Positions 3,667-48,801 are shown, counted from the stretch's first letter. The stretch is 64,000 nt of DNA from a virus (IMGVR_UViG_3300025087_000053:11563-75562), one strand, 5' to 3'. Program-made: numbers and translations. The notes: generated from the letters alone by a model not told the origin.

Positions 3667-5053
3667 CGTTCGAGATTTAAACCACGAAATCATCAGCCGA
3701 CATGAGTTTAAGCTCTCTCCTCTTATTAAAAATAATGAATTTACAAAAAAGTCAACATATTTCACTTCGTGTGCTATATTTATAATGTGTCGAAACGTCT
3801 TTCTACAACTTCTGAAAAAAGCCTCCCTATAACTATCCTCAGTCAACGTATTCGACTCGTTCCAAATAACATCCAAACAACCTTTTTCGAACGTTGTGCT
3901 GGTGCATCTCGCTTCGTCTACAACTGGGGATTGGACCGTTGGAAAACTCAATACGAAGCCGAAGGAAAGCCCTCTTGGATCAGTCTTAACACCGAGCTGA
4001 ATGCCTGCAAAAACACCGAATTTCCTTGGATGGCAAAATTGCCGTGGGCTGTTGCTGCAACGGCGTTGTCCAACCTCGGCAATGCTTTCTCCAACTTCTT
4101 TCGCCGTATCAAATCTGGCCAAAAGCCCGGCTATCCCCGCTTCAAGTCGAAGAAACAAAGCAAAATGTCCTTCGCCGTTGAAGGTCGAGCCCTTCGCTTT
4201 GACGGCCGAAGAGTTAAGATTCCCAAGCTTGGTTGGGTCCGCACTCGACAAGAGATAAGATTTCCTGGTAAAATCCTGTCCGCTCACTTTACGAAACATG
4301 CCGGTCATTGGTACGTCTCGGTCCAAATTCAAGTCTCCGACTCCTGGTCCTATCCCCATCGCTGCGAAACCCAAGAAGCGGTTGGAGTGGATCTCGGGCT
4401 CCGAGACCTTGCCGTGCTTTCTACGGGAGAACGGGTCGAGGCTCCACGCATTCTGCGTGCTCATGAAACCAGACTGCGACGATTCAACAAGGAAATGTCT
4501 CGTCGCGTCATAGGAGGAAGAAATTGGCAGAAGACTAAAACGAAGCTTGGACGGCTGCATGAACGGATTTCCAACATCCGCAAAGACGTAACGCATAAGC
4601 TTACCGCTCGGCTGGTCCGAGACTTTCGTCGGATTGGAATCGAGGACTTGAACGTCAAGGGGATGATGGCAAATCATCATCTTGCCAAGTCGATTGCGGA
4701 TGCTGCCTTGTCGGAAATCAGGCGTCAGCTTATGTATAAAGCTCCGCTTGCCGGCAGTGAAATCATTGTTGCCGACCGCTGGTTCCCTTCTTCCAAGCTG
4801 TGTTCCGACTGTGGAACAAGACGAGAAGGACCGTTGCCTTTGTCCATCCGAGAATGGGTTTGTGAGGTTTGTGGGGTTGTCCACGACCGAGACATCAACG
4901 CAGCCATTAATCTTAGAACCGCCGCCCTGGCGGGGATAGCCTGCTGTCAAGAAAGCTCTGGTTCTGGCCCTACGGCCAGAACGAAACTTCCTCATGGGCA
5001 GGAATTGAGCAACTGTGTTAACTAATGGGTTCATGGTTTAAGTCTCAAATGGG
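3667..5053 (+). mobile_element. IS607-type TnpB-only element, copy 1 (E1, 1387 bp, no transposase)
   Basis: Inverted ends cgTTCGAGATTTAAACC ... GGTTTAAGTCTCAAAtgGG; same length as copy 4; removing it rejoins a tRNA D-loop (GCTCAGTT|GGAT). Confidence 0.9.
3769..5025 (+). CDS. tnpB: RNA-guided endonuclease TnpB
   Basis: HTH_OrfB-like N-terminus, RuvC GVDLG / IEDL / DRDINAA, CxxC..CxxC zinc finger; true start may be GTG 3787. Confidence 0.95.
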   Translation: MCYIYNVSKRLSTTSEKSLPITILSQRIRLVPNNIQTTFFERCAGASRFVYNWGLDRWKTQYEAEGKPSWISLNTELNACKNTEFPWMAKLPWAVAATALSNLGNAFSNFFRRIKSGQKPGYPRFKSKKQSKMSFAVEGRALRFDGRRVKIPKLGWVRTRQEIRFPGKILSAHFTKHAGHWYVSVQIQVSDSWSYPHRCETQEAVGVDLGLRDLAVLSTGERVEAPRILRAHETRLRRFNKEMSRRVIGGRNWQKTKTKLGRLHERISNIRKDVTHKLTARLVRDFRRIGIEDLNVKGMMANHHLAKSIADAALSEIRRQLMYKAPLAGSEIIVADRWFPSSKLCSDCGTRREGPLPLSIREWVCEVCGVVHDRDINAAINLRTAALAGIACCQESSGSGPTARTKLPHGQELSNCVN

Positions 5054-5070
5054 AACTGAGCTACGGGCGC
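4915..5070 (+). ncRNA. Predicted omegaRNA of E1 (scaffold + flank-derived guide)
   Basis: Block conserved in all five element copies, overlapping the tnpB 3' end and right end, as known for TnpB omegaRNAs. Confidence 0.75.
5054..5070 (-). pseudogene. 5' fragment of tRNA-Arg-like gene interrupted by E1
   Basis: GCGCCCGTAGCTCAGTT is a canonical tRNA 5' acceptor strand plus D-stem start. Confidence 0.8.
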
Positions 5071-5113
5071 TAATATTAAAAAGCATACCCTCCCGTATCG
5101 TCTTTCACTTCTG

Positions 5114-5497
5114 TCACTTGGGAAGAACCCCCAGCTTTATAAACCCAACCGGACCAACTCCGTTAGAATGGCTCCTCACTGGTTTCACAATTTCTTTTTC
5201 TTCTCTTAGCACTTCAACGTGAATCGAACCAATCACCACATACCCACCACCAAACTTCTTTCTTGCCTCTCGGGTGAAAAGAAGCTCATATCGAGAATTG
5301 CCAACGTCCTTCGAAAAAACCTTGAAAGCCTTACCCTTATTGGCCCTTTCAAAAGCTTTCGCAATGCAAGAACCGATATCCTTGTCTTCCGTCTTCATTG
5401 CATAAAGCGGCCGAGACATACTAAAATACTTGTCAACTCCACACTCGAAATAGATCCTGTTAGACATTTTAATTATCCTTTCTTGTCCAAATTCCAT
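5114..5497 (-). CDS. Hypothetical protein
   Basis: ORF in operon orientation; probable start at MSNR. Confidence 0.55.
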   Translation of the reverse strand: MEFGQERIIKMSNRIYFECGVDKYFSMSRPLYAMKTEDKDIGSCIAKAFERANKGKAFKVFSKDVGNSRYELLFTREARKKFGGGYVVIGSIHVEVLREEKEIVKPVRSHSNGVGPVGFIKLGVLPK

Positions 5498-6225
5498 TTC
5501 TTGACGACTTCTGGCATTTCTTTGTTATAGTGGTCGGGGTCGTGTTGGTAAAGAATCTTCACGACCTCAACATGGCCTTTTGCCGAAGCCCATCGGATGG
5601 CATGGTTGTCATCGGCCGTTGGATCAACCCTCTTGTCGGAAAGAAGAATCTTCACGACCTCAACATGGCCTCTTTCCGAAGCCCATAGGATGGCATAGTT
5701 GTTATCGGCCGTTGGATCAACCCTCTTGTCGGAAAGAAGAATCTTCACGACCTCAACATGGCCTTTTGCCGAAGCCCATCGGATGGCATGGTTGTCATCG
5801 GCCGTTGGATCAACCCTCTTGTCGGAAAGAAGAATCTTCACGACCTCAACATGGCCGCAACTCGAAGCATCTTGGATGGCAGCGTTGTCATCGGCCGTTA
5901 GATCAACCCCGCAATCCAAAAGAGTTCTCCACGTCGAAGCTTTCTTCAAAGACATCCGAGGACCAAGAAGAATCTTGTTTGCCTTCCACTTGCTCCCACC
6001 GGGGTCCTTATAAATCTGCAAATCCTCGTCGTTTGGAAACGTCACCTCTCTGATCCACGGGCCGTAATTAAGGAATTCGCAGATATGCTTTTCGTCGGAG
6101 AAATATATTCCTCCGGAAGTACAGGTTCCTTGAGGATTAAAGGGCAAGACATCGACATTAAGCCCCGTCTTGTAATGCATTCTGTTGTGGCGCTCTTTTT
6201 CATTAAGAATCTTGAAGAACGGCAT
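5473..6225 (-). CDS. Ankyrin repeat protein A (4 repeats, conserved N-terminal domain)
   Basis: 31-aa repeats N.AIRWAS..GHVEVVKILL; RBS AAGGA; upstream promoter. Confidence 0.92.
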   Translation of the reverse strand: MPFFKILNEKERHNRMHYKTGLNVDVLPFNPQGTCTSGGIYFSDEKHICEFLNYGPWIREVTFPNDEDLQIYKDPGGSKWKANKILLGPRMSLKKASTWRTLLDCGVDLTADDNAAIQDASSCGHVEVVKILLSDKRVDPTADDNHAIRWASAKGHVEVVKILLSDKRVDPTADNNYAILWASERGHVEVVKILLSDKRVDPTADDNHAIRWASAKGHVEVVKILYQHDPDHYNKEMPEVVKKWNLDKKG

Positions 6226-6254
6226 GGTGATGTCCTTTGTTAGAAGATGGAGCC

Positions 6255-6283
6255 ATCTTATCTTATTTTTGTTGTCTTGTCAA
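6255..6283 (-). promoter_or_regulatory. Sigma70-type promoter of ankyrin gene A
   Basis: TTGACA-17-TAAGAT. Confidence 0.7.
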
Positions 6284-6499
6284 GCCCTCAACATATTTAC
6301 ATCCATCGGAATACCCATCGTCGTATCCATCGTCGTATCCCGCATTCCTCGCTGAAACTTTTGCAGAGTCAATACACATTTTGCAAGGAAGAAGATAATA
6401 GCTACCCGACTCCCCGGATTCTTGGACTTCCAAAACACTAGCACAAACTCTACAATAAAACTTTCTTTCCATCTTCTTCCTCCTCCTCAAACAAAACAA
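6263..6499 (-). CDS. Small hypothetical protein (CxxC pairs, GYDDG repeats)
   Basis: ORF; probable start MERKFYC. Confidence 0.55.
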   Translation of the reverse strand: MFCLRRRKKMERKFYCRVCASVLEVQESGESGSYYLLPCKMCIDSAKVSARNAGYDDGYDDGYSDGCKYVEGLTRQQK

Positions 6500-6836: not shown

Positions 6837-7040
6837 TTAAAGCAAATCCCAAAGGTTCTTATAAAGAACATCAGAAATATTCTTTGGTAACTCTTCTTGT
6901 GTTTCAGCCAAGTGCTTTATAAACTTCAAGAACTTTTCGTCTACTTCCTTGGCGATTTGCTCTGCCTGCCTTTTCGCAAGGTGTTTAAGCCGCCTTTCAT
7001 ATTGCTTTTTTGATATACGGAGATTGCGTTTTCTTCTCAT
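6837..7040 (-). CDS. Hypothetical basic protein
   Basis: Tightly packed ORF. Confidence 0.5.
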   Translation of the reverse strand: MRRKRNLRISKKQYERRLKHLAKRQAEQIAKEVDEKFLKFIKHLAETQEELPKNISDVLYKNLWDLL

Positions 7041-7045
7041 AATAT

Positions 7046-7201
7046 TTAAACCAGCCTATTCATCGCCCCGTTCCTATTGAGAAGCTTATCTCCAATAGCA
7101 ACAATTAAAGGATTTGGTTCCATTACTTGACCAACACCAGAACGAAAAACTTTATCCAAAGCCGCACCTTCGTTCCCTGGTCCCATTGCCCAACAAGACA
7201 T
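7046..7201 (-). CDS. Small hypothetical protein (51 aa)
   Basis: Manual translation MSCWAMGPGNEGAALDKVF...NRLV; fills the gap; ATG is 2 nt from the E2 left end. Confidence 0.45.
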   Translation of the reverse strand: MSCWAMGPGNEGAALDKVFRSGVGQVMEPNPLIVAIGDKLLNRNGAMNRLV

Positions 7202-7203
7202 AA

Positions 7204-7495
7204 TCTTTGAGACTTAACCACGACACGAACCCGTTAGTTAACATGGGGTTAAGCCTTCTCCTTCTGTTAAAAAGAACGAATTTACAAAAAAGGAGTAAAT
7301 TCCACTTCGTATGCTCTATTTATAGTATGTCGAAGTTTTATACTACGACGATAAAAAGAACCGCCGCCCTGGCGGGGATAGCCTGCTGTCAAGAAAGCTC
7401 TGGTTCTGGCCTTACGGCCAGAACGAAACTTTTTCATGGGCAGGAATCGAGCAGCCGTATTAACTAAGGAGTTCATGGTTTAAGTCTCGAAGGGG
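7204..7495 (+). mobile_element. Mini TnpB element E2 (left end + promoter + omegaRNA, tnpB deleted), 292 bp
   Basis: Homologous to both ends of E1/E4; internal deletion joins tnpB codon ~10 to AGAACCGCCGCC. Confidence 0.9.
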
Positions 7496-7500
7496 AAAAT

Positions 7501-7532
7501 AAAGAACCGGCCTAGATCGTGCGCCGGTTCTT
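7501..7532. terminator. Hairpin, probable bidirectional intrinsic terminator
   Basis: AAAGAACCGGC...GCCGGTTCTTT inverted repeat with A/T-rich flanks. Confidence 0.6.
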
Positions 7533-7713: not shown

Positions 7714-7716
7714 CTT

Positions 7717-8376: not shown

Positions 8377-8643
8377 TTAAATCATCGGAGCGCGGCCGAA
8401 ATAATCGTCCTTCAAAGCTTCCATGATCTTCTTGGACATCTTCACAGTCCATTCATTCCTGAGATCACACTGGTCCTCCATCTCAGACCAACGCTTGATG
8501 CAAGCCAGAAAAAGACCAAAGACAGACTGTTGCAGCGTCCTGTGCTGACGAGTGATTGCATCAACAAATGGCTTTTCATCATAGCAGCAGTTGTTAACAA
8601 GGCTTGCAATCTGCTCTGCCGTCTTCTCTGCGTCAAGGTTCAT
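8377..8643 (-). CDS. Hypothetical protein
   Basis: ORF with HRTLQQS motif, operon orientation. Confidence 0.65.
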   Translation of the reverse strand: MNLDAEKTAEQIASLVNNCCYDEKPFVDAITRQHRTLQQSVFGLFLACIKRWSEMEDQCDLRNEWTVKMSKKIMEALKDDYFGRAPMI

Positions 8644-8677
8644 TTTTTTCTCTCTTGTTCGCCCTGTTTTAGGAATT

Positions 8678-8951
8678 CCCCTTCGAGACTTAAACCATGA
8701 ACTCCTTAGTTAACAAGTTAACACGGACGCTCGATTCCTGCCCATGAGAACGTTTCGTGCTGGCCGTAAGACCAGAACCAGAGCTTTCTTGACAGAAGGC
8801 TATCCCCGCCAAGGCGGCGGTTCTTTCATAAGTCGTAGTACAAAACTTCGACACGCTATAATTATAGCACACGAAGTGAAACATGTTGACTTTTTTTGCA
8901 AATTCGTTGTTTTATTCAGCAGTTTATTAACTACAGTTCAAGTCTCAAACG
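8678..8951 (-). mobile_element. Mini TnpB element E3 (274 bp, inverted orientation)
   Basis: Reverse-complement copy with both ends and the same internal deletion as E2. Confidence 0.9.
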
Positions 8952-9002
8952 CCTTGGAAATCTCAAGCTCTGGTTTTTCCACTGTATTCTCCAAGGGTTT
9001 AA

Positions 9003-9608
9003 TTAAAACCGGCAACCTGCCTTCTTCAACAGCTTCACGACCTCAACATGGCCGTTTTCCGAAGCCCATAGGATGGCACGGTTGTCACCGGCCGTTGGAT
9101 CAACCCTTTTGTCGGAAAGAAGAATCTTCACGACCTCAACATGGCCGTTTTCCGAAGCCCATAGGATGGCACGGTTGTCACCGGCCGTTGGATCAACCCT
9201 CTTGTCGGAAAGAAGAATCTTCAAGACCTCAACATGGCCTCTTTCCGAAGCCACTCGGATGGCATAGTTGTCATCGGCCGTTGGATCAACTCCGCAATCC
9301 AAAAGAGTTCTCCACGTCGAAGCTTTCTTCAAAGACATCCGAGGACCAAGAAGAATCTTGTTTGCCTTCCACTTGCTCCCACTTGGGTCCTTATAAATCT
9401 GCAAATCCTCGTCGTTTGGAAACGTCACCTCTCTGATCCACGGGCCGTAATTAAGGAATTCGCAGATATGCTTTTCGTCGGAGAAATATATTCCTCCGGA
9501 AGTACAGGTTCCTTGAGGATTAAAGGGCAAGACATCGACATTAAGCCCCGTCTTGTAATGCATTCCATGGTGGCACTCGTCGTCATTAAGAATCTTGAAG
9601 AACGGCAT
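9003..9608 (-). CDS. Ankyrin repeat protein B (3 repeats)
   Basis: N-domain nearly identical to gene A; 93-bp repeats. Confidence 0.92.
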   Translation of the reverse strand: MPFFKILNDDECHHGMHYKTGLNVDVLPFNPQGTCTSGGIYFSDEKHICEFLNYGPWIREVTFPNDEDLQIYKDPSGSKWKANKILLGPRMSLKKASTWRTLLDCGVDPTADDNYAIRVASERGHVEVLKILLSDKRVDPTAGDNRAILWASENGHVEVVKILLSDKRVDPTAGDNRAILWASENGHVEVVKLLKKAGCRF

Positions 9609-11028: not shown

Positions 11029-11824
11029 ATAGATATTTCTCTTTCACAACAAATTGCTTCTTTGTCTTGGGAGAAATCACCAGATAAGGTCGACTTCCCT
11101 TCGACACAGATTGAATTGTTTGATCTTTATTATCCAAAACGATAACATCTTCTGTTGTAATCTTGGTTTTATCCTGCGAAGCGTAATACTTTCTGTTCTT
11201 ATTAAAATTGTTCGGACGATAAACCCTAACTAACTGTCCCTCTTCAAACTTCGGAGGTTCAAGATAAACTCTCCACACTCTATTAGACCACTTGTTATGA
11301 CAAATGTAAAGATAGTCTGAGTAGTTTTGCGGAGGACGAATAAAATATTTATTACTCGACGCATCCCAAAGTTGTGTTTTAGAGAAAATGCTTCTAGCGT
11401 TGGGATATTGAGCGCACAAACTCCAGTTTGCAGACTTGTTGCCAGCACCCAGCGAGAAATTATAATACCCTAAACAAGCTTCCCACCGTTCCTTACATCT
11501 TTCGGTGTTTTCTTCAAACCATTTAGAAAAGCCTTTACCGCCAAAGCAATCATATACCTTTTCTCTTGAGAACAAATCGTTTGCCATTACACTAATAAAC
11601 GAAAGTTGCCCAACGGAAAGAGTTGTGATTCTCGCTTTGCTAAGCAGATCAAGATAATAGCTTTGATATTTATTTTTCCAAATCTCCCAATGAGGAGACT
11701 TGTTTCCTTTTAGGTTTTCATTTAGAGTCTTCAAATACTTAAGGTTTTGTTTTGTTACCTCATCCAAACTAGACGGATATTCCGGCTCAATTGGCATGTT
11801 CTTAAAAAGAATCGGATTAAACAT
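11003..11824 (-). CDS. Hypothetical protein
   Basis: 273-aa ORF overlapping its neighbours. Confidence 0.7.
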   Translation of the reverse strand: MFNPILFKNMPIEPEYPSSLDEVTKQNLKYLKTLNENLKGNKSPHWEIWKNKYQSYYLDLLSKARITTLSVGQLSFISVMANDLFSREKVYDCFGGKGFSKWFEENTERCKERWEACLGYYNFSLGAGNKSANWSLCAQYPNARSIFSKTQLWDASSNKYFIRPPQNYSDYLYICHNKWSNRVWRVYLEPPKFEEGQLVRVYRPNNFNKNRKYYASQDKTKITTEDVIVLDNKDQTIQSVSKGSRPYLVISPKTKKQFVVKEKYLYDTKDIGT

Positions 11825-12506
11825 GGCAACCCGCTTTCGACAACAGCTTCACAACTTCGTAGTGGCCTGCTTGCGAAGCCACTAGGAGGGCATAGTTGTT
11901 GTCGACCGTTGGATCAACCCTCTCGTCGGCAAGAAGAATCCTCACGACCTCTGCATGTCCTTTTAACGAAGCCCATCGGATGGCACAATTGTATGAATCC
12001 GCTGGATCGACTCTCTTATCGGCAAGGAGAGCCTTCACAACTTTACTGTGACCTTGCTTCGAAGCCCATCGGATGGCAGCGTTGCTATCGTCCGCTGGAT
12101 TAGCCCTTTTGTCGGAAAGAAAAAGCTTCACAGCTTCAACATAACCACTATACGAAACCTTTTGGAGTGCGCTGTTCGTTGGAACAACCCCGCAATCCAA
12201 AAGAGTTCTCCACGTCGACGCCTTCTTCAAAGACATCCGAGGACCAAGAAGAATCTTGTTTGCCTTCCACTTGCTCCCACCGGGGTCCTTATAAATCTGC
12301 AAATCCTTGTCGTTTGGGAACGTCACCTCTCGGATCCACGGGCCATATCTAAGGAAATCGCAGATGTGCTTTTCGTCGGAGAAATACAAACCTCCGGGGT
12401 CACAACTTCCGCTAGGATTAAACGGCAAAATGTCGACGTTAAGACCCGTTTTATACTTCATTCCATAGTGGCGCTCGTTGTCGTGAAGAATCTTAAAGAA
12501 CGGCAT
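11817..12506 (-). CDS. Ankyrin repeat protein C (more diverged paralogue)
   Basis: Same N-domain as A and B, 4 repeats. Confidence 0.92.
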   Translation of the reverse strand: MPFFKILHDNERHYGMKYKTGLNVDILPFNPSGSCDPGGLYFSDEKHICDFLRYGPWIREVTFPNDKDLQIYKDPGGSKWKANKILLGPRMSLKKASTWRTLLDCGVVPTNSALQKVSYSGYVEAVKLFLSDKRANPADDSNAAIRWASKQGHSKVVKALLADKRVDPADSYNCAIRWASLKGHAEVVRILLADERVDPTVDNNYALLVASQAGHYEVVKLLSKAGCHV

Positions 12507-12573: not shown

Positions 12574-14181
12574 CTATTTTTTAACGAGAACACAACTTAG
12601 CGTAATTAACATGGAGGCGGCGCTAAGAGCGTTGAGAAGCGCAAACACTTCTACTTTCGTAGGATCAAGAATCCCGGCCCCAATCATATCAGGTACAAAA
12701 CCTCTTGTCAAGAAATTATACCCTTTCCATAAACTTTTGTTTTTATTTCTTTTATTTCTCTTTAGCACCTCTGAAGAAAGAGAATCAAAGCTAACGCCAG
12801 AATTGCCACAAAGCTTTCTGAATGGAGAAGATAGGGCATTTTTAATGATTTGAGCACCATGTTTTTGTTCCTCTGTTTTAAAATCGCACATCTTTAAAGA
12901 TTCGGATTGAAGCAGCAAGGGGATGCCTCCACCAGGAAGATACCCATGTTCTAGAGAAGACTTAACCGCCTCTAAAGAGTCCTGAACTCTGTGCGTTTTT
13001 TCTATTGCTTCTGCTTCTGTATACCCTCCAACACGTATAACCGCAGCTCCAGAAGAAAGTCTAGAAATTCTTCCTTCAAGAATCTTTTGTTTTATTTCGC
13101 TCTCTTCTCGGCGAAGCTCTTCTTTTAATTCTTCTGTCTTGGCAAGTATCTTTGCTTGCTCTCCTCCTCCACCAACGAAAGTAGAAACATTTTTATAAAT
13201 CTCTACTGATTTGACTCGACCAAGATGTACCATTCTGGTTTTTTCTAAAGTCAGCATCGCACTATCATAAGGAGAAATAAACTCTGCTCCAGTGACAAGA
13301 GCCAAATCTTTAAGTATCTCTTTTCTTTCTTCACCAAAAGCGGGAGGACTTACCACCGCAATTTTCATTGTGTTGTTGATTGCGTTTAATATAACAGCCG
13401 ATAAAGCCTGACCCTCCACCTCTTCCGCGATAATTACCAAAGGCTTTCCTTCTTTTGCTGCCATGGTCAGAATACCCATTATTTGCTCAACAAAAGAAAC
13501 TCTCTGATCTGTTACCAACACCAATGCGTCGTTATATCTTACGGAATTTGTTCTATGGTCGTTTACAAGCGCCGAAGAAACATAGCCTGAGTTAAATCGA
13601 AATCCGTCGATATATTCAACAACGGTATCAAAAGACTTCGACATTTCAACCACAATTGAGCCATCTTTCCCTATGTTTGAAACAACATCCTCTATTAGAT
13701 TCCCAATAACTTCGTCGCCATTTGCAGAAATTGTCGCAATACTTTTAATTTGTTCTGTTGAGTCAACCTTGAGAGAACTCTTTTTCAATTCTTCTACAAC
13801 TTTTTCTACAGCTTTTTCCATTCCCACTTTAAGTTCGTTGGGATTGTCGCCAAGATCAAGATATTTCAAAGAAGAGAAAAAGATATTCGCGGCCAACACA
13901 ATACTTGTCGTAGTTCCATCACCTGCGTTGATGTTTGTGGAAATTGCAGCTTGCTTTAATATTTGTACTATGGCATTTATAATCGGGTCATCTGATTCAA
14001 CAAACTTCGCAACAGTTACACCGTCTTTCGTTTGGACGGGCGAACCATCTCCGCTCTTTAAAAGAACCGTTTTACCAGCAGGACCCATTGTTGACGATAC
14101 AGGAAAATAAATAAGTTCTATCGCCTTTAGAACTTTTTCTCTAAGCTCACGAGAATCCATTTCATGAAAATTCATTCTCAA
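12574..14181 (-). CDS. groEL: Chaperonin GroEL (phage-encoded)
   Basis: TMGPAG, TKDGVTVAK, AGDGTTT, ATISANGD, GILDPTKV. Confidence 0.97.
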   Translation of the reverse strand: MRMNFHEMDSRELREKVLKAIELIYFPVSSTMGPAGKTVLLKSGDGSPVQTKDGVTVAKFVESDDPIINAIVQILKQAAISTNINAGDGTTTSIVLAANIFFSSLKYLDLGDNPNELKVGMEKAVEKVVEELKKSSLKVDSTEQIKSIATISANGDEVIGNLIEDVVSNIGKDGSIVVEMSKSFDTVVEYIDGFRFNSGYVSSALVNDHRTNSVRYNDALVLVTDQRVSFVEQIMGILTMAAKEGKPLVIIAEEVEGQALSAVILNAINNTMKIAVVSPPAFGEERKEILKDLALVTGAEFISPYDSAMLTLEKTRMVHLGRVKSVEIYKNVSTFVGGGGEQAKILAKTEELKEELRREESEIKQKILEGRISRLSSGAAVIRVGGYTEAEAIEKTHRVQDSLEAVKSSLEHGYLPGGGIPLLLQSESLKMCDFKTEEQKHGAQIIKNALSSPFRKLCGNSGVSFDSLSSEVLKRNKRNKNKSLWKGYNFLTRGFVPDMIGAGILDPTKVEVFALLNALSAASMLITLSCVLVKK

Positions 14182-14918
14182 ACCTCTTTCAACAGTTGTT
14201 CAATATCTAAAGCTCCATAACAATCCTGTTTTTCTCTATTGATATGATAATGATGAATAAACCCCTTACAAGAGTTATGGATAAATGTTGCTTTATTCCC
14301 ATTCAAAGTCTGCAAAGGAAGATGAAAGAAAAGATGAAAAGCCTTCCAAAGCTCTTTTAAAGCCTCTAGTTGTATTGGATAAAATCCTAATATCTTCCCA
14401 AGTTTAACACCATTCACTCTATCCTGGGTTTCTATAATCGGTCGTGCTCCAAATCCATTCTTCTCATACCAATCTTGGTATTTTAGTTCTACAGCGTTTG
14501 TTATTTCAACTCCAACGCTTTTTGCATTATAGGGCTTTGCGTGCTGAGCAATGTCCGCAATGTCACACATTTGATATATCGTTCCATCGTTGTCAATAGA
14601 AAAATGAACACTCAATCCTCTATGTTCCAATACAGAATAGCAATCTCGCGAGGACAAACAAGCATCCCAATGGTTAACAAATAAATTAATCTCTCTGGTC
14701 CCCTTAACACTTACTACATTCTTATTCCTCATTCCTCCTGGCTCTGTGAAGTCGACAACAGGCCAGGCAATGGGGACTGAAGCTGTTCTCCGATAGATAA
14801 GAAAATTTTCCTCTTTTAAACTAGGCTTCTGGGGCACATAGGTTATGCCTTTCTCCAGATTATAGTTGGAAATATTCTCTCTCGCGAGAGCTGAGAGGTC
14901 TTCTTTGGTTTTTGTCAT
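14178..14918 (-). CDS. N-acetylmuramoyl-L-alanine amidase (Amidase_2), putative endolysin
   Basis: FVNHWD, SVHFSIDNDGTIYQ, AQHA..YN..SVGVEI, HYHI; native start MTKTK; alternative start 14939 inside E4. Confidence 0.85.
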   Translation of the reverse strand: MTKTKEDLSALARENISNYNLEKGITYVPQKPSLKEENFLIYRRTASVPIAWPVVDFTEPGGMRNKNVVSVKGTREINLFVNHWDACLSSRDCYSVLEHRGLSVHFSIDNDGTIYQMCDIADIAQHAKPYNAKSVGVEITNAVELKYQDWYEKNGFGARPIIETQDRVNGVKLGKILGFYPIQLEALKELWKAFHLFFHLPLQTLNGNKATFIHNSCKGFIHHYHINREKQDCYGALDIEQLLKEV

Positions 14919-14920
14919 CG

Positions 14921-16307
14921 CATTCGAGATTTGAACCATGAACTCCTTAGTTAACATGGGTTTAAATCTTCTCCTCCTGTTAAAAAGAATGAATTTGAAA
15001 AAAAGTCAACATATTTCACTTCGTGTGCTATAATTATAGTGTGCCGAAACATCATTCTACAACTTCCGAAAATAACCTCCCCACAACTATCCTCGGCCAA
15101 CGCATTCGGCTGGATCTTAATAACGTCCAAACATCTTTTTTTGAACGATGCGCCGGTGCTTCCCGTTTCGTCTACAACTGGGGATTGGACCGCTGGAAAG
15201 CTCAGTACGAGGCTGGTGGAAAACCGTCGTGGGTTAGTCTTAGCTCTGAACTGAATGCCTGTAAAACTACCGAATTTCCCTGGATGATCAAGCTGCCGTG
15301 GGCTGTTCCCTCTACGGCGCTGTCCAACCTCGGCAATGCTTTCTCCAACTTCTTTCGTCGTGTTAAATCTGGCCAAAAGCCCGGTTATCCCCGTTTCAAG
15401 TCGAAGAAACGGAACAAAGCAGCCTTTGCCATCGAGGGCCGAGCCCTTCGTTTTGACGGCCGAAGAGTTAAAATTCCCAAACTCGGCTGGGTCCGCACCC
15501 GACAAGAGATAAGATTCCCCGGCAAAATCTTGTCCGCTCACTTTACGAAACATGCCGGTCATTGGTACGTCTCGATTCAAGTTCAAGTCTCCGACTCCTG
15601 GTCTTATCCTCACCGCTGCGAAACCCAAGAAACGGTTGGAGTGGACCTCGGACTTCGAGACCTTGCCGTGTTTTCCACTGGAGAACGGGTCGAGGCTCCA
15701 CGCATTCTGCGTGCTCATGAAACCCGACTGCGACGACTCAACAAGGAAATGTCTCGTCGCGTCATAGGAGGAAGAAATTGGCAGAAGACTAAAACGAAGC
15801 TTAGTCGGCTGCATGAACGGATTTCCAACATCCGCAAAGACGTAACGCATAAGCTTACCGCTCGGCTGGTCCGAGACTTCCGTCGGATTGGAATCGAGGA
15901 CTTGAACGTCAAGGGAATGATGGCAAATCACCATCTTACCAAGTCGATTGCGGATGCTTCCCTGTCGGAAATTAGGCGTCAGCTCACGTATAAGGCTCCG
16001 CTTGCCGGCAGCGAAATCGTTGTTGCAGACCGCTGGTTCCCCTCTTCCAAGCTGTGTTCCGACTGCAGAACAAGACGAGAAGAGCCGTTGCCTTTGTCTG
16101 TCCGAGAATGGGTTTGCGAAGCCTGCGGGGTTGTCCACGACCGAGACATCAACGCAGCCATTAATCTTAGAACCGCCGCCCTGGCGGGGATAGCCTGCTG
16201 TCAAGAAAGCTCTGGTTCTGGCCTTACGGCCAGAACGAAACTCTCTCATGGGCAGGAATCGAGCAGCCGTGTTAACTAAGAAGTTCATAGTTTAAGTCTC
16301 GAAGGGG
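14921..16307 (+). mobile_element. IS607-type TnpB-only element, copy 4 (E4, 1387 bp)
   Basis: ~40-bp imperfect terminal inverted repeats; removal restores clpP stop-AAGGGG-10 nt-ATG of the amidase. Confidence 0.92.
15023..16279 (+). CDS. tnpB: RNA-guided endonuclease TnpB
   Basis: Close paralogue of 3769-5025; RuvC D/E/D and zinc finger intact. Confidence 0.95.
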   Translation: MCYNYSVPKHHSTTSENNLPTTILGQRIRLDLNNVQTSFFERCAGASRFVYNWGLDRWKAQYEAGGKPSWVSLSSELNACKTTEFPWMIKLPWAVPSTALSNLGNAFSNFFRRVKSGQKPGYPRFKSKKRNKAAFAIEGRALRFDGRRVKIPKLGWVRTRQEIRFPGKILSAHFTKHAGHWYVSIQVQVSDSWSYPHRCETQETVGVDLGLRDLAVFSTGERVEAPRILRAHETRLRRLNKEMSRRVIGGRNWQKTKTKLSRLHERISNIRKDVTHKLTARLVRDFRRIGIEDLNVKGMMANHHLTKSIADASLSEIRRQLTYKAPLAGSEIVVADRWFPSSKLCSDCRTRREEPLPLSVREWVCEACGVVHDRDINAAINLRTAALAGIACCQESSGSGLTARTKLSHGQESSSRVN

Positions 16308-16319
16308 ATGTCTAGCCCC

Positions 16320-17018
16320 TTAAATAATCTCGTCGATTATCCCATACTCAAGAGCTTTTTGTGCAGAGAAGTAGTGGTTTCTCACCTTAAGAAACTTTTT
16401 TAAGTCTCTCTCGGTAAGCTTTGAATTTTCCAGAAGAATTCTGCAATAGGTATCTTGCAAAACAGTAATTTCTGCAGAATGTTCTTTCATTGCCGGGTAT
16501 GAACCTTCAAAAGAGGCGATTACATTATGAATCATAAATCTACAGTTTTCAGTAGCTCTTCTCTTTGTACCGCCAATTAAAAGTATTGTAGCAGCAGATT
16601 GACATGTGCCAATAGCAGTAGTGATTATTTCAAATCCCTGTCTCTTTATGATCTGCATCATGTCATAAACACCCAAAGTTCCCTCCACTATCCCACCCGT
16701 AGAAGAAACTAAAATCTCAAAAGGCTCTTTTACTACTTCTTCTTCTCCGGTTTCTTCGTTTTTGTAAAGATATAGACCTTTTGCTGCGAGGGAAAGCATT
16801 TGAAACGTTGCGCTAGCACAAACGTCTTCTGTTATCTGTCCGTATACACCAACAACTCTTAAAGGATTAGAGTCTTCCGGAGAAACAAAAAGTCCCTTAT
16901 CCTCATCATCCTCGCCCTGCTCACAATGGTCGCATAGCTTAGTATAAACCTTTTTATTTACTTCGCATACACTACGAAGTTTATTTGAATTTTTCATGAA
17001 TTCTCCGGGTTCGGTCAT
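16320..17018 (-). CDS. clpP: ClpP-like protease
   Basis: SSTGG, IGTCQSAAT (catalytic Ser), RFMIHN (His), YFSAQKALEYGIIDEI. Confidence 0.9.
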   Translation of the reverse strand: MTEPGEFMKNSNKLRSVCEVNKKVYTKLCDHCEQGEDDEDKGLFVSPEDSNPLRVVGVYGQITEDVCASATFQMLSLAAKGLYLYKNEETGEEEVVKEPFEILVSSTGGIVEGTLGVYDMMQIIKRQGFEIITTAIGTCQSAATILLIGGTKRRATENCRFMIHNVIASFEGSYPAMKEHSAEITVLQDTYCRILLENSKLTERDLKKFLKVRNHYFSAQKALEYGIIDEII

Positions 17019-18756: not shown

Positions 18757-20838
18757 TTATAGCTTTCTAAATGCTTCATTTATCTTCTTGTTCGTAGAAA
18801 AACCCCACTTCTCATCTTTGGTAACGACGCCAACATAAGCTGAGTTTTCAACAAGAGGATAATAGTCTTTCACATTCCAGCACTTAATTTTGTTCTCTTC
18901 ACCCGTATTATCAACCACCGTAAGAACAGCATAATCTTTCTTGTTTGCTAAGGTTTGCTTAAACTCTACGCTCTTTAATACAAACCAAACATATTTGCCC
19001 ACTTCCCATTCGCTCACCGGAACGGCGCCAAGAGACTTTAAAGCTTTTACGTCTTTAGGTGAAACAATTTGGTCAACAGGATAAACTCCTGTTAACTGAG
19101 AGCGATAAATAAGTCTTTCTTTTTCCGCGAAGGAGCCTTCTGGAGAATACAATTTAATATTTTCTTCAAAGTCTTCTTGGTCTTTAGGACGAATAACCGC
19201 CACACATGACCAGAAATGCTTGTCGCCAGTAAACCTTTCGTCCATAAGACTATCTAATGCGCCGCTTCTTGTCAAGACATCTAGATACTTTTTATTTAGC
19301 TTCTTGCCCCAAATGTCTTCTTTAAAAAGCACATCTTCAATCTTATTGTAGGGACGACAATAGGAGATTTGTTCTACAGCGGTCTTGCCCATCCCCAGCA
19401 AAGAGAACAGAGGTTGAATAAGTTCTTTTTTGTTGTCTGGAGACACATCCCAATCATATAAAGAGGACTTATTTATGTCCACAGAAGCCATAGTGAACCC
19501 AATAGATTTAGCATCAGATATCGCTTTTGCTTTTGTTTTTTCTGGCTCGCTGTTGAGGAAGGCGGCAACCCATTCGCTTTGATAATAAGTAAAAAGCCAA
19601 GCACACTGATAAGAAAGGATGGAATATCCGCAACTGTGGGACAAATTAAATCCATAATTGTTGAATAATTCCAAGGACTTCCATAATTCTTCTAAAGCAT
19701 TACCTTCAATCCCCTTTTCAAGACCACCCTCGACAAACTTCTTATAAATCTTCTCTTTCTTTTCTGCGTTGTTCCCTATGAGACCCTTTTTTGTCAAGAG
19801 TTTTCTAAGAGAGTTTCCTTCCATTAGAGAAACGTCTTTCCCTATTGCAACAGCCAACTTAGCAATTTGCTCTTGATAAATAACAAAGCCATAGGTACTT
19901 TTTAAAACAGGCTCCACACAAGGATGAAGGTAGGTAACGGTTTCTGGATGCCTTTTCGCTTTTAAATACTTCTTGTCTATGTTCGAACCCAGAGGTCCCG
20001 GCCGATATATCGAAGTTACAGCAGACAAATCCTCAATAGATGTGGGTTTAACTTTCACGCAAAAGGATTGCGCGCCGTCGTTAGAAAATTGGAAAATACC
20101 TAAATTTAAATTCTTCTTCTTGTGGAAAACAGTTTCCCATACTTTCTGATCGTCGAAGTTGATTACGTCGGGGTGCAAGTTTCTATTATAAAACTCTATA
20201 ATTTCTTTTATCCCACAAGAGAGTTTTCTTTTGTGAAGAATATGTTTGATAGTATCTTCTATAATTGTTAAAGTTTGCAATCCTAAAATATCAAATTTAA
20301 TAAACCCCAAAGGTTCTAGATGCCGTACCGCTTGCCCTTCAGACCAAGGACTTTGGAAAGAACCCTTGGCGCTAATAAGAGGCATTTTTTCATGTAAGTT
20401 ATCAGACCAAACAAGTCCCGCCGCATGTTGTCCAATAGACTTCACCATGCCTTGTAAATTTTCTATGTGAGATGCTACAGAGGGATATTTTCTTAAAAAG
20501 GCTTGGAAAGAAGGACTATATGCCTTAACTTCTTCATAAGTAGGTTCGTAAACTCCGGCAACTTGCTCATGATCCTGTTTGGCTTTTGGTAAAGCCTCGT
20601 CGACCATTTTTGTTGTTACTTCATTAACTTCTTGAAAAGATACATTATAAAATTTTGATATGTCCTTAACAAGAGACTTCAAGTGAAATGTGCCATAGTT
20701 TGAAATAAGAGTTGCGCTCTTTTCTCCCCACTCTTCAATAAGAAAAGTCTTAAACTCTGCTGCACGAGAAAAATCGCAGTTGTGAACAATAACAGTCTTA
20801 TAACTCTCTTTAAAAGAGTGATGTTTAATGATTTCCAT
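18757..20838 (-). CDS. dnaE: DNA polymerase III alpha, C-terminal half, preceded by a 20-aa C-intein
   Basis: MEIIKHHSFKESYKTVIVHN|CDF; GQHAAG, KFDILGL, GIFQF, RPGP, IYQEQ, YGFNLSH, C-terminal OB fold. Confidence 0.93.
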   Translation of the reverse strand: MEIIKHHSFKESYKTVIVHNCDFSRAAEFKTFLIEEWGEKSATLISNYGTFHLKSLVKDISKFYNVSFQEVNEVTTKMVDEALPKAKQDHEQVAGVYEPTYEEVKAYSPSFQAFLRKYPSVASHIENLQGMVKSIGQHAAGLVWSDNLHEKMPLISAKGSFQSPWSEGQAVRHLEPLGFIKFDILGLQTLTIIEDTIKHILHKRKLSCGIKEIIEFYNRNLHPDVINFDDQKVWETVFHKKKNLNLGIFQFSNDGAQSFCVKVKPTSIEDLSAVTSIYRPGPLGSNIDKKYLKAKRHPETVTYLHPCVEPVLKSTYGFVIYQEQIAKLAVAIGKDVSLMEGNSLRKLLTKKGLIGNNAEKKEKIYKKFVEGGLEKGIEGNALEELWKSLELFNNYGFNLSHSCGYSILSYQCAWLFTYYQSEWVAAFLNSEPEKTKAKAISDAKSIGFTMASVDINKSSLYDWDVSPDNKKELIQPLFSLLGMGKTAVEQISYCRPYNKIEDVLFKEDIWGKKLNKKYLDVLTRSGALDSLMDERFTGDKHFWSCVAVIRPKDQEDFEENIKLYSPEGSFAEKERLIYRSQLTGVYPVDQIVSPKDVKALKSLGAVPVSEWEVGKYVWFVLKSVEFKQTLANKKDYAVLTVVDNTGEENKIKCWNVKDYYPLVENSAYVGVVTKDEKWGFSTNKKINEAFRKL

Positions 20839-21319
20839 GTTTCCTCTTGTTGTCTATCTCAAGTACAAATCTCTTTCTTTCTTCGGTAATAGTATTAAAA
20901 ACTTCTATTACATCCAATGGAACTATTTGAAAACTTTTTGTTTCTCCCAATAAAGAAATGTCGGTTAAAGCTATTCTTTCTTTTTTTTGTTTTGACATCT
21001 TTTCTATTTCCAGCACCACTACTTCCCCGCCAATAGATTTCAAAGAATCACCAATTTTTAATTCTTTTGTCTTAGTAACCCTGTCACTTGAAAGAATAAA
21101 CTTGTGCGTTTCGCCCGCAATAATAATACCCAAAATATCTTCTTCTACTTGTTGTACTACTATTGAAAATACTTTTTCTTTCGGCCGCACATTTCTACTA
21201 AAAACAGCAGAAACCACGGAGTTCTCTCCAAACTCGTTTATAACAACATCTCCTATTAGAACATCTCGAAGTTTTTTATATCCCCCAGAAACTCGTACTT
21301 CGTGCCCGCTCCAAAGACA
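20779..21319 (-). mobile_element. Split intein in dnaE (IntN 164 aa at 21319-20828; IntC 20 aa at 20838-20779)
   Basis: PDID|CLWSG block A; ETHKF block B His; TDISL...SF block F; VHN|C block G in the next ORF. Confidence 0.88.
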
Positions 21320-42082: not shown

Positions 42083-42424
42083 TTATCCCTCAAACATCAT
42101 CATAACTTTTTCCAACGGCAAAGGAATATAAACTATTTGTCCAATTGTTAATTGGCAGTCTACTGGAACTTGGTTAAACCAAGCAATCAACCACCATAAA
42201 GTAACATCTCCATAGTGTTTATATGCAAGTTTATAATACTTGTCCCCGGCTCTCCATGTATGATTAACAACATCAAGTTCTTTTATTTGTTCTTTTGTCG
42301 GATATTTCAGTTGAAGAGTTTTGTATTGTAAAATATGCTTAAGCCCCTTTTTCTTAAGCTCCGAAGCATACATTTCATTTTTGTTGATAACAGGATTTAA
42401 CCTGCGATAACGAGAGATGGGCAT
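42083..42424 (-). CDS. LysM-like baseplate wedge protein (gp53/tail X-like)
   Basis: HTWRAGDKYYKLAYKHYGDVTLWWLIAWFN...GQIVYIP. Confidence 0.8.
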   Translation of the reverse strand: MPISRYRRLNPVINKNEMYASELKKKGLKHILQYKTLQLKYPTKEQIKELDVVNHTWRAGDKYYKLAYKHYGDVTLWWLIAWFNQVPVDCQLTIGQIVYIPLPLEKVMMMFEG

Positions 42425-43992
42425 TATTTAACAACCTCTTTATACGATTCTTTGATTAATCTTCTTAGAAAGGATTCTTTTATTTCTTCTTTCTTGTCCA
42501 AATCCCATTTCCTGACGATTCCTGGTGTTTCTTTATTATAGTGGTCGGGGTTATGTTGATAAAGAATCTTCACGACCTCAACATGGCCGTTTGCCGAAGC
42601 CCATCGGATGGCAGCGTTGTCATCGGCCGAGGGAACAACCCTCTTGTCGGAAAGAAGAATCTTCACGACCTCAACATGGCCGTTTGCCGAAGCCACTCGG
42701 ATGGCAAGGTTGTTACCGGCCGTTGGATCAACCCTCTTGTCGGAAAGAAGAATCTTCACGACCTCAACCTGGCCGTATTCCGAAGCCCATTGGAAGGCAT
42801 AGTTGTCATCGGCCGTTGGATCAACCCTTTTGTCGGAAAGAAGAATCTTCACGACCTCAACATGGCCTTTTGCCGAAGCCCATCGGATGGCAAGGTTGTT
42901 ACTTGTTCTTACGTTCGCACCCTTCCGAATTAAATCTTTTACATATTCGAGGTTGGGAGTTTCTTCTTGTTTTACCGCATCTTTTAGCTTGTTGTTTAGC
43001 AAACCTTGCCGTTGAATCTGTTTTTCATATTTTAAAAACTCTTCGGGGATACCACCCTCCGACATCTCCGCCATCATTTCGATGGAAGGATTATACCCGG
43101 CTCGAACAATCTTCATTAGCTTTCGGAGTTCGTCGACATTATACGCTTCCGCTTCATCTCTATTGAAAGCCGCAGCAACAAACTTTAGCCAATCGTCATA
43201 TGTTACTTCCTTCATGTTCTTCTGCATCAAGGAAACATATTTGTTAAATCGGTCTTGACCTCCGATCTCTTCTATTACTTCTCTCGGGGTTTGAAGAAGA
43301 TTTCCCGTAAATATGCCGCCAGGATATTCGTTCTCTACTGTCGTTACGGTTGTTTCGATACCGTCCCCTTGGTCGACAACAGCAAAGTTAATTCTTGAAA
43401 ACCTGTTACTTATGACGTCTTCCAAAGGAACTGTCTTGTTTATGACGTTAAAAAAGACGACCCCATCGTTAATCGTATATTGATAGAAATAGTTCTGTCC
43501 TTGGGCTGCAATACACCATGGGGTTCCTCGACCCCAATAACAAGAGCCCTCCCTCGACAGCAGACGAATCATGATGTATTCATCGTCCTCATAAAGAGTT
43601 TGGAAATGTTCCCCTTCGCCACTTTCGGCTGCTTTATAGGCGGTTTTCTTCTTCTCTTTCCCCTTCGATCTCTCGCTCCGTTGCACGGTTTCGTAATAGT
43701 TGATTGCGTCGAAGACTCTTTCAGCCGTTTCGTATTGATTAATGTCTTTCTTTTCCAGCCGAGGACCAATCTGATCGAACTTAAGAAATGCGTCCGCAAC
43801 AAGCTCTTTGCTCTCGTTGCCTTGAAGAGTTCTTTTTAAAGCCCATTCCAAATACTTCTGTTTGCCCGTCGGATCTTTCGAGGCAAAGAAGTCGATTAGC
43901 TCTGTTTGCTCGGGAAGCTTTTCTTTCAGAGAGGAAATTTTATCTTCAAGCAAAAGAACATCTTTAACTTCTTCCAAAATTACATATCTCAT
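42424..43992 (-). CDS. Multidomain protein with C-terminal ankyrin cassette (ankyrin locus D), within the tail module
   Basis: N-terminal DPTGKQKYLEW / SCYWGRGTPWC domain; four 93-bp repeats at ~42561-42905. Confidence 0.85.
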   Translation of the reverse strand: MRYVILEEVKDVLLLEDKISSLKEKLPEQTELIDFFASKDPTGKQKYLEWALKRTLQGNESKELVADAFLKFDQIGPRLEKKDINQYETAERVFDAINYYETVQRSERSKGKEKKKTAYKAAESGEGEHFQTLYEDDEYIMIRLLSREGSCYWGRGTPWCIAAQGQNYFYQYTINDGVVFFNVINKTVPLEDVISNRFSRINFAVVDQGDGIETTVTTVENEYPGGIFTGNLLQTPREVIEEIGGQDRFNKYVSLMQKNMKEVTYDDWLKFVAAAFNRDEAEAYNVDELRKLMKIVRAGYNPSIEMMAEMSEGGIPEEFLKYEKQIQRQGLLNNKLKDAVKQEETPNLEYVKDLIRKGANVRTSNNLAIRWASAKGHVEVVKILLSDKRVDPTADDNYAFQWASEYGQVEVVKILLSDKRVDPTAGNNLAIRVASANGHVEVVKILLSDKRVVPSADDNAAIRWASANGHVEVVKILYQHNPDHYNKETPGIVRKWDLDKKEEIKESFLRRLIKESYKEVVK

Positions 43993-44819: not shown

Positions 44820-44832
44820 CGATTAGCCCTCG

Positions 44833-47079: not shown

Positions 47080-47082
47080 TTT

Positions 47083-47433
47083 TTATTTCCCAAAAGGCCA
47101 CTTAATACCTGTTGTCTTCTGAAAAGAATCAACAGCCTTTGAAAGCCAAGATTTGCTTGCATATGTCTTGGGATTGTCTAGCCCATATTTTGTTATGGAG
47201 TCGACATAGCCCTTTTCTCCAGCAATAGCCTTAGAAAATAAGTCTACTTGCTCTTTGGTCCCTACAATTTTAACAGGAATGGCAAAATCCGACCCAAATA
47301 GTCTTTTAAGAATATTCTGTATTGCCACACCAAGAGACCTTGTAAATCTATCCTCGTTTATTTTATCTTTTTCATTTAAATTAATGCGAATTTCTTGTAG
47401 TTCTTGGTCTTTTGACATGGACAGTTCTCCCAA
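47083..47433 (-). CDS. Hypothetical protein
   Basis: ORF with upstream ACTAATTA motif; probable start MSKDQ. Confidence 0.65.
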   Translation of the reverse strand: MGELSMSKDQELQEIRINLNEKDKINEDRFTRSLGVAIQNILKRLFGSDFAIPVKIVGTKEQVDLFSKAIAGEKGYVDSITKYGLDNPKTYASKSWLSKAVDSFQKTTGIKWPFGK

Positions 47434-47477
47434 AAAGAAAAGATTTCTTTCTCAAATAATTAGTGATTTCTTATTGT

Positions 47478-47680
47478 TTATGGATGATTAAAGCTGGGAG
47501 GGCCACTATTTTTCTTTGGCTTCTCTTCTTCCAGCTTTGCAGATAGTTTCTCGATCAAAAATCTTCTTAATCCAACAGACATATTATAAGACGTTAATAT
47601 CGAAATATTCCCGTAATATGCCAATAAAAACATCGCCTCCCAAGCCTTTTCCACATATTCATCATTTATTCCAAAAAAAG
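47478..47680 (-). CDS. Tail assembly chaperone extension (probably reached by +1 frameshift)
   Basis: FFGINDEY...YNMSVGLRRFLIEKL open in the +1 frame from a U7 run. Confidence 0.55.
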
Positions 47681-48519
47681 CTGTGGTCAAGCGGAACCTC
47701 CGAGTCCGCTTCGAACCCACAAGAACAAGCAAAATGATACTTTCTCTTAATATCAGGAGCCACTTTAGAATAACAAAAAGTTAAATGGGCCGAGTCTACC
47801 ATCGGAAGCTTTTCTAATGCTGTACGAAGGAATACGGCAGTCCTGGGGTCATTCTTTGCTATCTTCTCCCCCTTTTCGTTCTCAATGGAAACAACGGCAG
47901 TTTCTAGCACAGAAAGATTTGTCAATTCCTTAATCTTTTTTTGTTCGTCTCGGGTTAAAAGCTGAAATTGTGCTTTCCATTTGGTTTTGGGAAGTTCTAT
48001 TTCATATGTCTTTGGGCCGGTTTTTACAATTACTTCGTCCCCTTCTGGCATACCTGGGGCTAGCTCAAAACTGTCCAAATCTACGGAACTATTAACTCTT
48101 TGCCCACAAGATGGACAGCCCAAAGAAAACTCATATTTCGGAGATATGGATTTTGACCGAGAAGCAATAACAATTGCGTTAATATCGGCAGCCAACAGCT
48201 CTCTCGGGTTTATGTGTTTATCCACCAAGATATGAGCAAGAAATTTATCTATTGCAAGGTCTTTTTTCCATAAATCTTTGTTGGAAAGAATATCCTCGTC
48301 TTTTGCTGTCATATGATAAATTTCAACGAATTCAGCATCTTTCAGAGGGTGCCCCTCTGGATAAAATCTTCCTTTACTTGGGATTTCTATTGTTTCCGTC
48401 TCAACAGGAAGATCAAACCATCTTGTTTTTTCTTGTGTTGGCGGAGGGTTGAAAGCTACATCTTCTTCTGTTGTTTTTTGATGCGCTCCCAAAAGTCGTT
48501 CGTCGTTTCTTGTTGCCAT
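47662..48519 (-). CDS. Tail/baseplate assembly chaperone (gp26-like)
   Basis: IPSKGRFYP, MTAKDEDIL, CPSCG, CSCG, ends FFW; lies between tube and tape measure. Confidence 0.8.
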   Translation of the reverse strand: MATRNDERLLGAHQKTTEEDVAFNPPPTQEKTRWFDLPVETETIEIPSKGRFYPEGHPLKDAEFVEIYHMTAKDEDILSNKDLWKKDLAIDKFLAHILVDKHINPRELLAADINAIVIASRSKSISPKYEFSLGCPSCGQRVNSSVDLDSFELAPGMPEGDEVIVKTGPKTYEIELPKTKWKAQFQLLTRDEQKKIKELTNLSVLETAVVSIENEKGEKIAKNDPRTAVFLRTALEKLPMVDSAHLTFCYSKVAPDIKRKYHFACSCGFEADSEVPLDHSFFWNK

Positions 48520-48611
48520 GTTTTATTACCTTCTGGCGAACTTTCGCCAATGCTCATGCTGCGCTGTCTACAGCCCTTCAAACACATAAAATATATCTCA
48601 CATAAGTCGGT

Positions 48612-48801
48612 TTCGTGTGCTATATTTACAATGTGTCGAAGATTTATACTACGACTTATGAAAGAACCGCCGCCTTGGCGGGGATAGCCTGCTGTCAAGA
48701 AAGCTCTGGTTCTGGCCTTACGGCCAGAATGAAACTCTCTCATGGGCAGGAATTGAGTAGCCGTGTTAGCTAAGGAGTTCATGGTTTAAGTCTCAAAGGG
48801 G
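48612..48801 (+). mobile_element. Mini TnpB element E5 (promoter + omegaRNA + right end; left end not recognisable)
   Basis: Homology to E2/E3 from TTCGTGTGCTATATT to GTCTCAAAGGGG. Confidence 0.88.

Follow-up and report, generated by a model that had tools for sequence, protein, structure and literature searches.

The window analyzed here, a 64,000-nucleotide stretch of viral DNA that corresponds to bases 11563-75562 of the linear 75.6-kb contig IMGVR_UViG_3300025087_000053 (estimated to represent 38% of the genome), contains five related copies of an element built around the nuclease TnpB. Two of these, E1 and E4, are full elements with a tnpB gene followed by a structured omegaRNA scaffold, whereas the other three, E2, E3 and E5, are mini elements that have lost the effector gene (Table 1). 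Examination of these copies suggests that promoter and scaffold are under selection at the RNA level in at least two of the minis, and this points to a system in which guide RNAs from dispersed mini elements would be used in trans by the nucleases of the full ones.

Table 1. Features of the five TnpB-related copies, in window coordinates
Feature	Position	Strand	Description
E1 full element	3664..5054	+	1391 bp; left inverted repeat, promoter, tnpB, omegaRNA scaffold, right end
E1 promoter-like site	3752..3780	+	TCAACA, 17-nt spacer, TATATT, extended TG
tnpB copy 1	3787..5025	+	412 aa from GTG at 3787; longest open reading frame 3769-5025 (418 aa); RuvC D/E/D and zinc ribbon intact
omegaRNA scaffold of E1	4918..5054	+	137 nt; overlaps last 36 codons of tnpB
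E1 predicted guide	5055..5074	+	antisense to first 20 nt of broken tRNA gene
E2 mini element	7201..7496	+	296 bp; left end, weaker promoter, 35-nt leader, full scaffold
E2 predicted guide	7497..7516	+	enters stem of terminator-like hairpin of neighboring minus-strand gene
E3 mini element	8677..8954	-	278 bp; promoter 8889-8861 (strongest match); scaffold 8677-8821
E3 predicted guide	8657..8676	-	flank of right end
E4 full element	14918..16308	+	1391 bp; tnpB copy 2; scaffold 16172-16308
tnpB copy 2	15041..16279	+	GTG start at 15041; longest open reading frame 15023-16279 (418 aa)
E4 predicted guide	16309..16328	+	flank of right end
E5 mini element	~48615-48802; 48597..48802 including promoter-like site	+	no left end; promoter-like site 48597-48626, leader, scaffold 48666-48802
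E5 predicted guide	48803..48822	+	flank of right end

Two TnpB elements and their omegaRNA scaffold

E1 and E4 are of equal length, as the initial annotation had stated, but its figure of 1387 bp has to be corrected by boundary shifts of 1-3 nt. The left boundary of E1 was set by the terminal inverted repeat, with an uncertainty of ~3 nt. This repeat, formed by the left and right ends, spans ~40 bp and matches at 35 of 42 positions in E4 and 29 of 42 in E1; terminal inverted repeats were also sought in other members of the TnpB clade, and none was found there. Both tnpB open reading frames (ORFs) match the Pfam families OrfB_IS605, Cas12f1-like TNB and HTH_OrfB_IS605, and the two proteins are 89% identical to each other. 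Both match the ISDra2 TnpB structures with E=3.7e-73; the chain with the highest score is 9yyg, a nuclease designed by AI, and its alignment displays the motifs GVDLG, IEDLN and HDRD as well as a CxxC zinc ribbon. The residues D208, E292 and D375 are invariant in a 22-sequence TnpB alignment. Thus, the earlier claim of an intact RuvC D/E/D triad holds for both copies, which have the RuvC-like domain, the triad, and a zinc ribbon between RuvC-II and RuvC-III that are typical of TnpB. ISDra2 TnpB (PDB 8EXA, 8H1J) is the best natural match of solved structure and has the same domain order and catalytic motifs, but it belongs to a Y1-type IS605 element with a TTGAT motif and its sequence identity to the window proteins is moderate. 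Over the whole gene the two tnpB copies show a ratio of non-synonymous to synonymous divergence (dN/dS) of 0.15 at a dS of 0.35, which indicates that both nucleases are under purifying selection. On this evidence both nucleases are intact, and RNA-guided cleavage is their predicted activity.

Open antisense frames span both genes (3535-5034, minus strand, 499 aa; 14951-16288, minus strand, 445 aa), with no match to a Pfam family. The codons TTA, CTA and TCA are entirely lacking from the 412 codons of either tnpB; elsewhere among the genes of the phage they make up 3.7%. For an Anabaena tnpB, a preprint reports that an antisense ORF is expressed (10.64898/2026.02.14.705889).

The same 137-nt scaffold with a common fold lies at the 3' end of all five copies. 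Among 10 sequences (the five copies and five relatives) 18 of the 38 pairs show compensatory changes, and among 27 distinct sequences 32 of the 38 have changed on both sides. In the larger set 92.5% of the cells are paired, compared to 72% in shuffled alignments and 29-41% when the partners are slid. A covariance model built from the 10 sequences matches the 3' end of tnpB in 18 further loci, including bona fide IS607 relatives; the 27-sequence alignment was itself fitted to this model, a circumstance that biases it towards the structure. Synonymous divergence between the tnpB genes of E1 and E4 is 0.038 where they overlap the scaffold, as opposed to 0.39 in the rest of the gene. Together, the covariation and the drop in synonymous divergence identify the 137-nt structure as the omegaRNA: it is a structured RNA that overlies the 3' end of tnpB, terminates at the right end of the element and is followed by a variable guide. 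In Ectothiorhodospira haloalkaliphila (L018) the scaffold occurs twice, at 5081-5207 and 6033-6159, 952 nt apart, and the second copy lies behind a 5'-truncated duplicate of tnpB.

Directly before the GTG of tnpB is a sigma-70-like promoter, with TCAACA separated by 17 nt from TATATT or TATAAT and an extended TG. It scores 9-10 out of 12 in E1, E3 and E5, the best being E3 (10/12, with the TG). This promoter block is kept in all seven copies inspected, namely the five in the window and two on a related viral contig (G001), which bears the same element family at both its ends (89% identity) and is otherwise unrelated to the phage; flanking proteins tested against three end stretches of that contig gave no match. 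As the GTG start stands right behind the promoter, the tnpB mRNA is probably leaderless. All six independent left flanks end in CA (TGTCA in three of them, CACCA, AGACA and TTCCA in the others), and we take this CA-ending sequence as a candidate target-adjacent motif. The right end, which reads GAAKGGGA, is unlike it, as would be expected if self-cutting is avoided.

The right flanks, which are the predicted guides, differ in all five copies, in agreement with the initial annotation. Flanks of 16 nt have no second site at two or fewer mismatches in the 75.6-kb contig, and this uniqueness fits a homing model in which the insertion-free allele is the target. The flank of E1 belongs to tRNA debris on the minus strand (3499-3648 and 5055-5074): the 5' 20 nt of a tRNA form the right flank, and the matching 3' acceptor and T arm are at ~3499-3530, some 140 nt beyond the left end of E1. 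Between the flank and this 3' acceptor lies a tRNA(UCU) whose D arm is nearly absent and whose variable region is long; it scores 32.5 bits with the Rfam tRNA model and is not called by ARAGORN; removal of E1 in silico likewise yields no intact tRNA by ARAGORN. The simplest reading of this arrangement is that E1 was inserted into a tRNA region of the phage. Near 3279-3296, 17 nt of the tRNA acceptor region are found once more. A 57%-identical metagenomic TnpB element also sits between tRNA genes (L100, 1-170 and 1500-1560), which hints at a preference of the clade for tRNA regions.

E4 is inserted exactly at the start codon of an amidase gene, a putative endolysin (14178-14918, minus strand). 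Joining its flanks (14915-14921 and 16309-16325) would recreate a ribosome-binding site, AAGGGG, 7 nt ahead of the amidase ATG; with E4 present, the A of this ATG is the first base of the element.

Anatomy and conservation of the mini elements

Repeat finding and alignments place the right end (~155 nt) in all five copies and the left end in four, E5 being the one from which it is absent. The terminal 15-mer occurs 12 times, against 2.5 occurrences expected by chance, and nine of the 12 are element ends. E2, E3 and E5 have one deletion junction in common, at which ~30 nt of the 5' end of tnpB are joined to the sequence just past the RuvC-III codons, and which lies at an AG microhomology. This common junction points to a single ancestral deletion, the product of which spread to three loci afterwards. 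All three minis have no effector gene and retain a complete scaffold and right end (model positions 1-137), which is the anatomy of stand-alone omegaRNAs. Compatible effectors are encoded in the same genome by the two intact tnpB genes, whose scaffolds are 89-96% identical to those of the minis.

An in-frame ORF of 46-54 aa is left over in the minis, in which the start of tnpB is fused to its last 36 codons. Its dN/dS of 0.6-1.1 indicates that constraint does not act on the peptide, and a micro-protein encoded by the minis was dismissed as a candidate since this ratio is ~1. E2 and E5 are oriented against their flanking genes, so that their transcripts would be antisense to these, and E3 runs in the same direction as its neighbors, its right end lying 34 nt upstream of the ORF 8377-8643 (minus strand). 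The initial annotation had proposed that the leftover 5' sequence of tnpB has become a new hairpin in the leader of the minis. This was not borne out: the folding energies of -6.8, -6.5 and -4.2 kcal/mol (z-scores -1.95, -0.90 and -0.65) do not go beyond those of shuffled sequences, and the sole substitution in the stem, found in E5, weakens the hairpin rather than preserving it.

The covariance model scores E2 at 155.7 bits, the best of all copies, and E5 at 152.2 bits, which compares with 155.4 and 154.0 bits for the full elements and 132.1 bits for E3. Relative to the consensus of the five copies, E5 has four pair-preserving changes, including a double change from C-G to U-A, besides two changes at unpaired positions and one broken pair that is common to E4. 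E2 has one pair-preserving and one pair-breaking change. Promoter and scaffold are conserved at ~94% in the minis. When E2 is compared with E3, identity amounts to 94% in the scaffold and to 73% in the 5' part (Fisher p=4.5e-6). With its 27% difference, the 5' part comes near to what tnpB gives as a measure of neutral change (third positions 21% raw, dS 0.35-0.39), whereas the scaffold divergence is well under the third-position divergence (p=4e-5). With promoter and scaffold kept, the left end drifting or gone and the peptide unconstrained, E2 and E5 have the appearance of maintained guide-RNA genes. This suggests that their promoters and scaffolds are under selection at the RNA level and their left ends are not. 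Such a pattern offers a means, from sequence alone, to distinguish maintained guide genes from decaying mini-transposons.

Proposed action in trans and its alternatives

An ancestral copy lost codons ~10-376 by a single deletion at the AG microhomology, and the resulting mini reached at least three loci, those of E2, E3 and E5. From this anatomy we infer the further course of events, which extends to expression, loading and cleavage. Each mini would be transcribed from the retained tnpB promoter and its 35-nt leader trimmed. TnpB from E1 or E4 would then bind the 137-nt scaffold with ~16-20 nt of flank in trans, and the complex would cut DNA where the flank sequence directly follows a CA-ending motif. 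Such a target would be present only in insertion-free genomes, for example those of co-infecting relatives; repair from the element-bearing genome would copy the element in, or the rival genome would be lost. Overall, we consider it slightly better than an even bet that the minis are self-transcribed guide-RNA units which act in trans with the TnpB family of E1 and E4 in homing or exclusion.

Several observations weigh against this reading. The promoter of E2 falls below the scan threshold. The count of five guides was overstated with respect to E3, which has four breaking changes in supported helices and an 8-nt duplication, and scores ~23 bits lower. E3 is probably decaying, or else it acts as promoter of the ORF that lies 34 nt beyond its right end. 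The number of substitutions in the minis is also small. The multi-guide layout is not general: in viral contigs the exact scaffold pattern had no match, a looser one matched full-length relatives only, with one scaffold per contig, and the other viral contigs with a TnpB of this clade have a single scaffold each. Finally, no empty site or sister phage free of the insertions was found by any of three routes. A megablast of 20 kb against phage records gave zero matches, with no close relative among deposited phage genomes; a search of viral contigs with the ClpP-like protease found no relative; and the tail sheath recovered relatives at only 45-48% identity, in which synteny is kept but which are too distant to define an empty site. 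For this reason the element boundaries, the motif and the homing target had to be deduced indirectly.

The main alternative is that the scaffolds have been held alike without function by gene conversion with the full elements, or because the right end is selected at the DNA level, and that the minis are passive relics comparable to miniature inverted-repeat transposable elements (MITEs) or palindrome-associated transposable elements (PATEs). We regard this as possible, if on balance doubtful. It would account for a contig that has no transposase, the minis having once been spread by an enzyme that is now absent or encoded elsewhere, and for left ends that drift or are lost and an E3 that decays. 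The phage also encodes a UvsX-like recombinase, and the variants common to the copies form a mosaic suggestive of recombination, the U-A pair of E5 being as in E1 and other sites as in E4 or E3. However, conversion should have homogenized the left ends as well, and the escape of these ends, with their 27% difference against 6% in the scaffold, is left unexplained by it. The preservation of pairing by changes in E5 also speaks against passive relics, as does the conservation of the promoter even in this copy, which is no longer mobilizable. A different possibility is that the minis have been co-opted to serve phage genes, as portable promoters or regulatory RNAs, instead of acting as guides. 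E3, which combines the best promoter with a damaged scaffold immediately ahead of an ORF, is the clearest case, and E4 and other copies too sit at gene starts; but E2 and E5 point against their flanking genes, and retention of the whole 137-nt scaffold with pair-preserving changes would go unexplained. We regard this possibility as improbable. We consider it very improbable that at least E1 is aimed at the host, cutting host or rival-phage tRNA genes as a weapon of takeover or competition. The flank of E1 does correspond, in reverse complement, to the 5' 20 nt of a tRNA, and the matching D-loop bases would supply a CA-ending motif. Nevertheless, insertion into a phage tRNA gene is simpler, given the 3' acceptor and T arm beyond the left end, and the TnpB of a relative is likewise found between tRNA genes.

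Returning to guide RNAs that act in trans, it is the retention of promoter together with covarying scaffold, rather than the leader hairpin, that sustains the earlier view of the minis as guide-expression units. Rather unlikely, in our view, is an extension of it in which the minis have been domesticated as fixed, self-promoted guide genes, immobile because their left ends are neutral or lost and a transposase is lacking. Two TnpB nucleases with four or five guides would then form a dispersed multi-locus gene-drive or exclusion system directed against co-infecting relatives, alongside the Cas12f-associated CRISPR mini-array described below, and tRNA genes might be a further target of the E1 guide. 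Provided that the minis are active, a lytic-type phage would be able, by means of guide RNAs derived from a transposon, to bias the inheritance of several loci or to harm competing genomes with no CRISPR array involved. This would constitute a simple natural step from the one-guide nuclease of a transposon towards a multi-guide immune system.

Relation to known elements and the phage setting

Metagenomes and viral contigs supply the closest TnpB proteins, at 57-91% identity, and among ~185,000 species-representative genomes the closest are 42-48% identical. Directly upstream of the closest cellular tnpB genes (L019, L021, L071 and L025) are genes for a TnpA with a MerR-type helix-turn-helix and a resolvase domain, which marks these loci as IS607 elements, and the scaffold model matches the first three of them. 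Hence both TnpB and omegaRNA in the window are homologous to those of elements with a serine TnpA. No serine recombinase (PF00239) was detected in the elements or elsewhere in the 75.6-kb contig, i.e. in ~38% of the genome, nor were Y1 (PF01797), tyrosine recombinase, rve or DDE_3 domains; the observation that the window has no transposase thus extends to the whole contig for these five families. The GG core expected at both junctions of an IS607 element, with a scaffold ending in CGG and a G-rich motif, is also lacking: the TnpA-bearing relatives end in GGA-ACGG, and the phage clade stops at GGGA, after which the sequence is variable. By homology the elements are therefore IS607-related in descent, but they lack two defining features of an IS607 transposon. 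The minis may have spread by means of a transposase encoded in the unsequenced ~60% of the genome or in the host, or by one now extinct.

For IS607 elements a homing model has been described, with TGGG as the motif and GG as the core (Zedaveinyte et al. 2023, PMC10690162), and this model carries over to the window elements. Unlike IS607 elements, including IStrons, the window elements have neither TnpA nor the ACGG extension nor a group I intron, and their left flanks end in CA instead of the G-rich TGGG. An IStron was dismissed, as no group I intron reaches the Rfam gathering score in the window, or E<=10 around E1 (3300-5300). PATEs frequently carry omegaRNAs that depend on TnpB supplied in trans (Meers et al. 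2023, PMC10055086), and resemble the minis in being protein-less and sharing ends with TnpB elements. In contrast, PATEs of the IS200/IS605 type have asymmetric ends that bear subterminal hairpins, and a Y1 TnpA mobilizes them; what we find here is a ~40-bp terminal inverted repeat, a contig without PF01797 and a TnpB clade linked to serine TnpA.

The nearest parallel is provided by stand-alone omegaRNAs (Altae-Tran et al. 2021, via PMC10691335). These have no effector or transposase, occur in genomes with effector loci, and are reported to act in trans and add target sites; like the minis, they are gene-less mobilized copies in which scaffold and right end have acquired new flanks and the effector is found elsewhere in the genome. 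The present case differs from them in its phage setting, in the retained tnpB promoter that would make the minis self-promoted, in one copy without a left end, and in sequence evidence for selection on promoter and scaffold amid left-end decay. Since trans-acting stand-alone omegaRNAs are already published (PMC10691335, PMC10055086), the array-free multiplexed nuclease of the initial annotation does not represent a new concept, and this limits the wider value of the finding. Somewhat unusual here are three features: promoter and scaffold show evidence of selection, the ends form an inverted repeat, and the core typical of IS607 has been lost.

In three viral relatives a ribbon-helix-helix (CopG-type) gene of 44-79 aa with its own promoter stands directly before tnpB (L187:9915-10049, L262:3130-3291, L264:3003-3242). 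These relatives have no inverted repeat and a single scaffold each, and the gene is absent from the window elements.

The phage setting is real, as the contig encodes ribonucleotide reductase, a split DNA polymerase, a DnaB-like helicase, the UvsX-like recombinase, GroEL, tail sheath and baseplate hub, with nearly all genes on the minus strand. Upstream of the window lies a 475-aa Cas12f-like protein (L260:5502-7498, equivalent to G000:C1), which matches solved Cas12f structures with E=1e-60 and has a Pfam TNB domain. It adjoins a CRISPR array of five repeats with 61-nt periodicity and 33-34-nt spacers, and among the sequences compared in this analysis the spacers match only themselves. The DNA polymerase (18757-22705, minus strand) consists of two overlapping ORFs, which match the first and the second half of a single PHROG family in turn. 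Ankyrin-repeat genes with 93-nt units form a dispersed family at 5473-6225, 9003-9608, 11817-12506, 42424-43992, 60586-60987 and 63619-64000, and several of its members have a near-identical N-terminal part (repeat families D1-D3). Finally, a duplication of ~800 nt (52367-53170 and 54460-55263), with a spacing of 2093 nt and 73-88% identity, apparently comprises paralogous genes.

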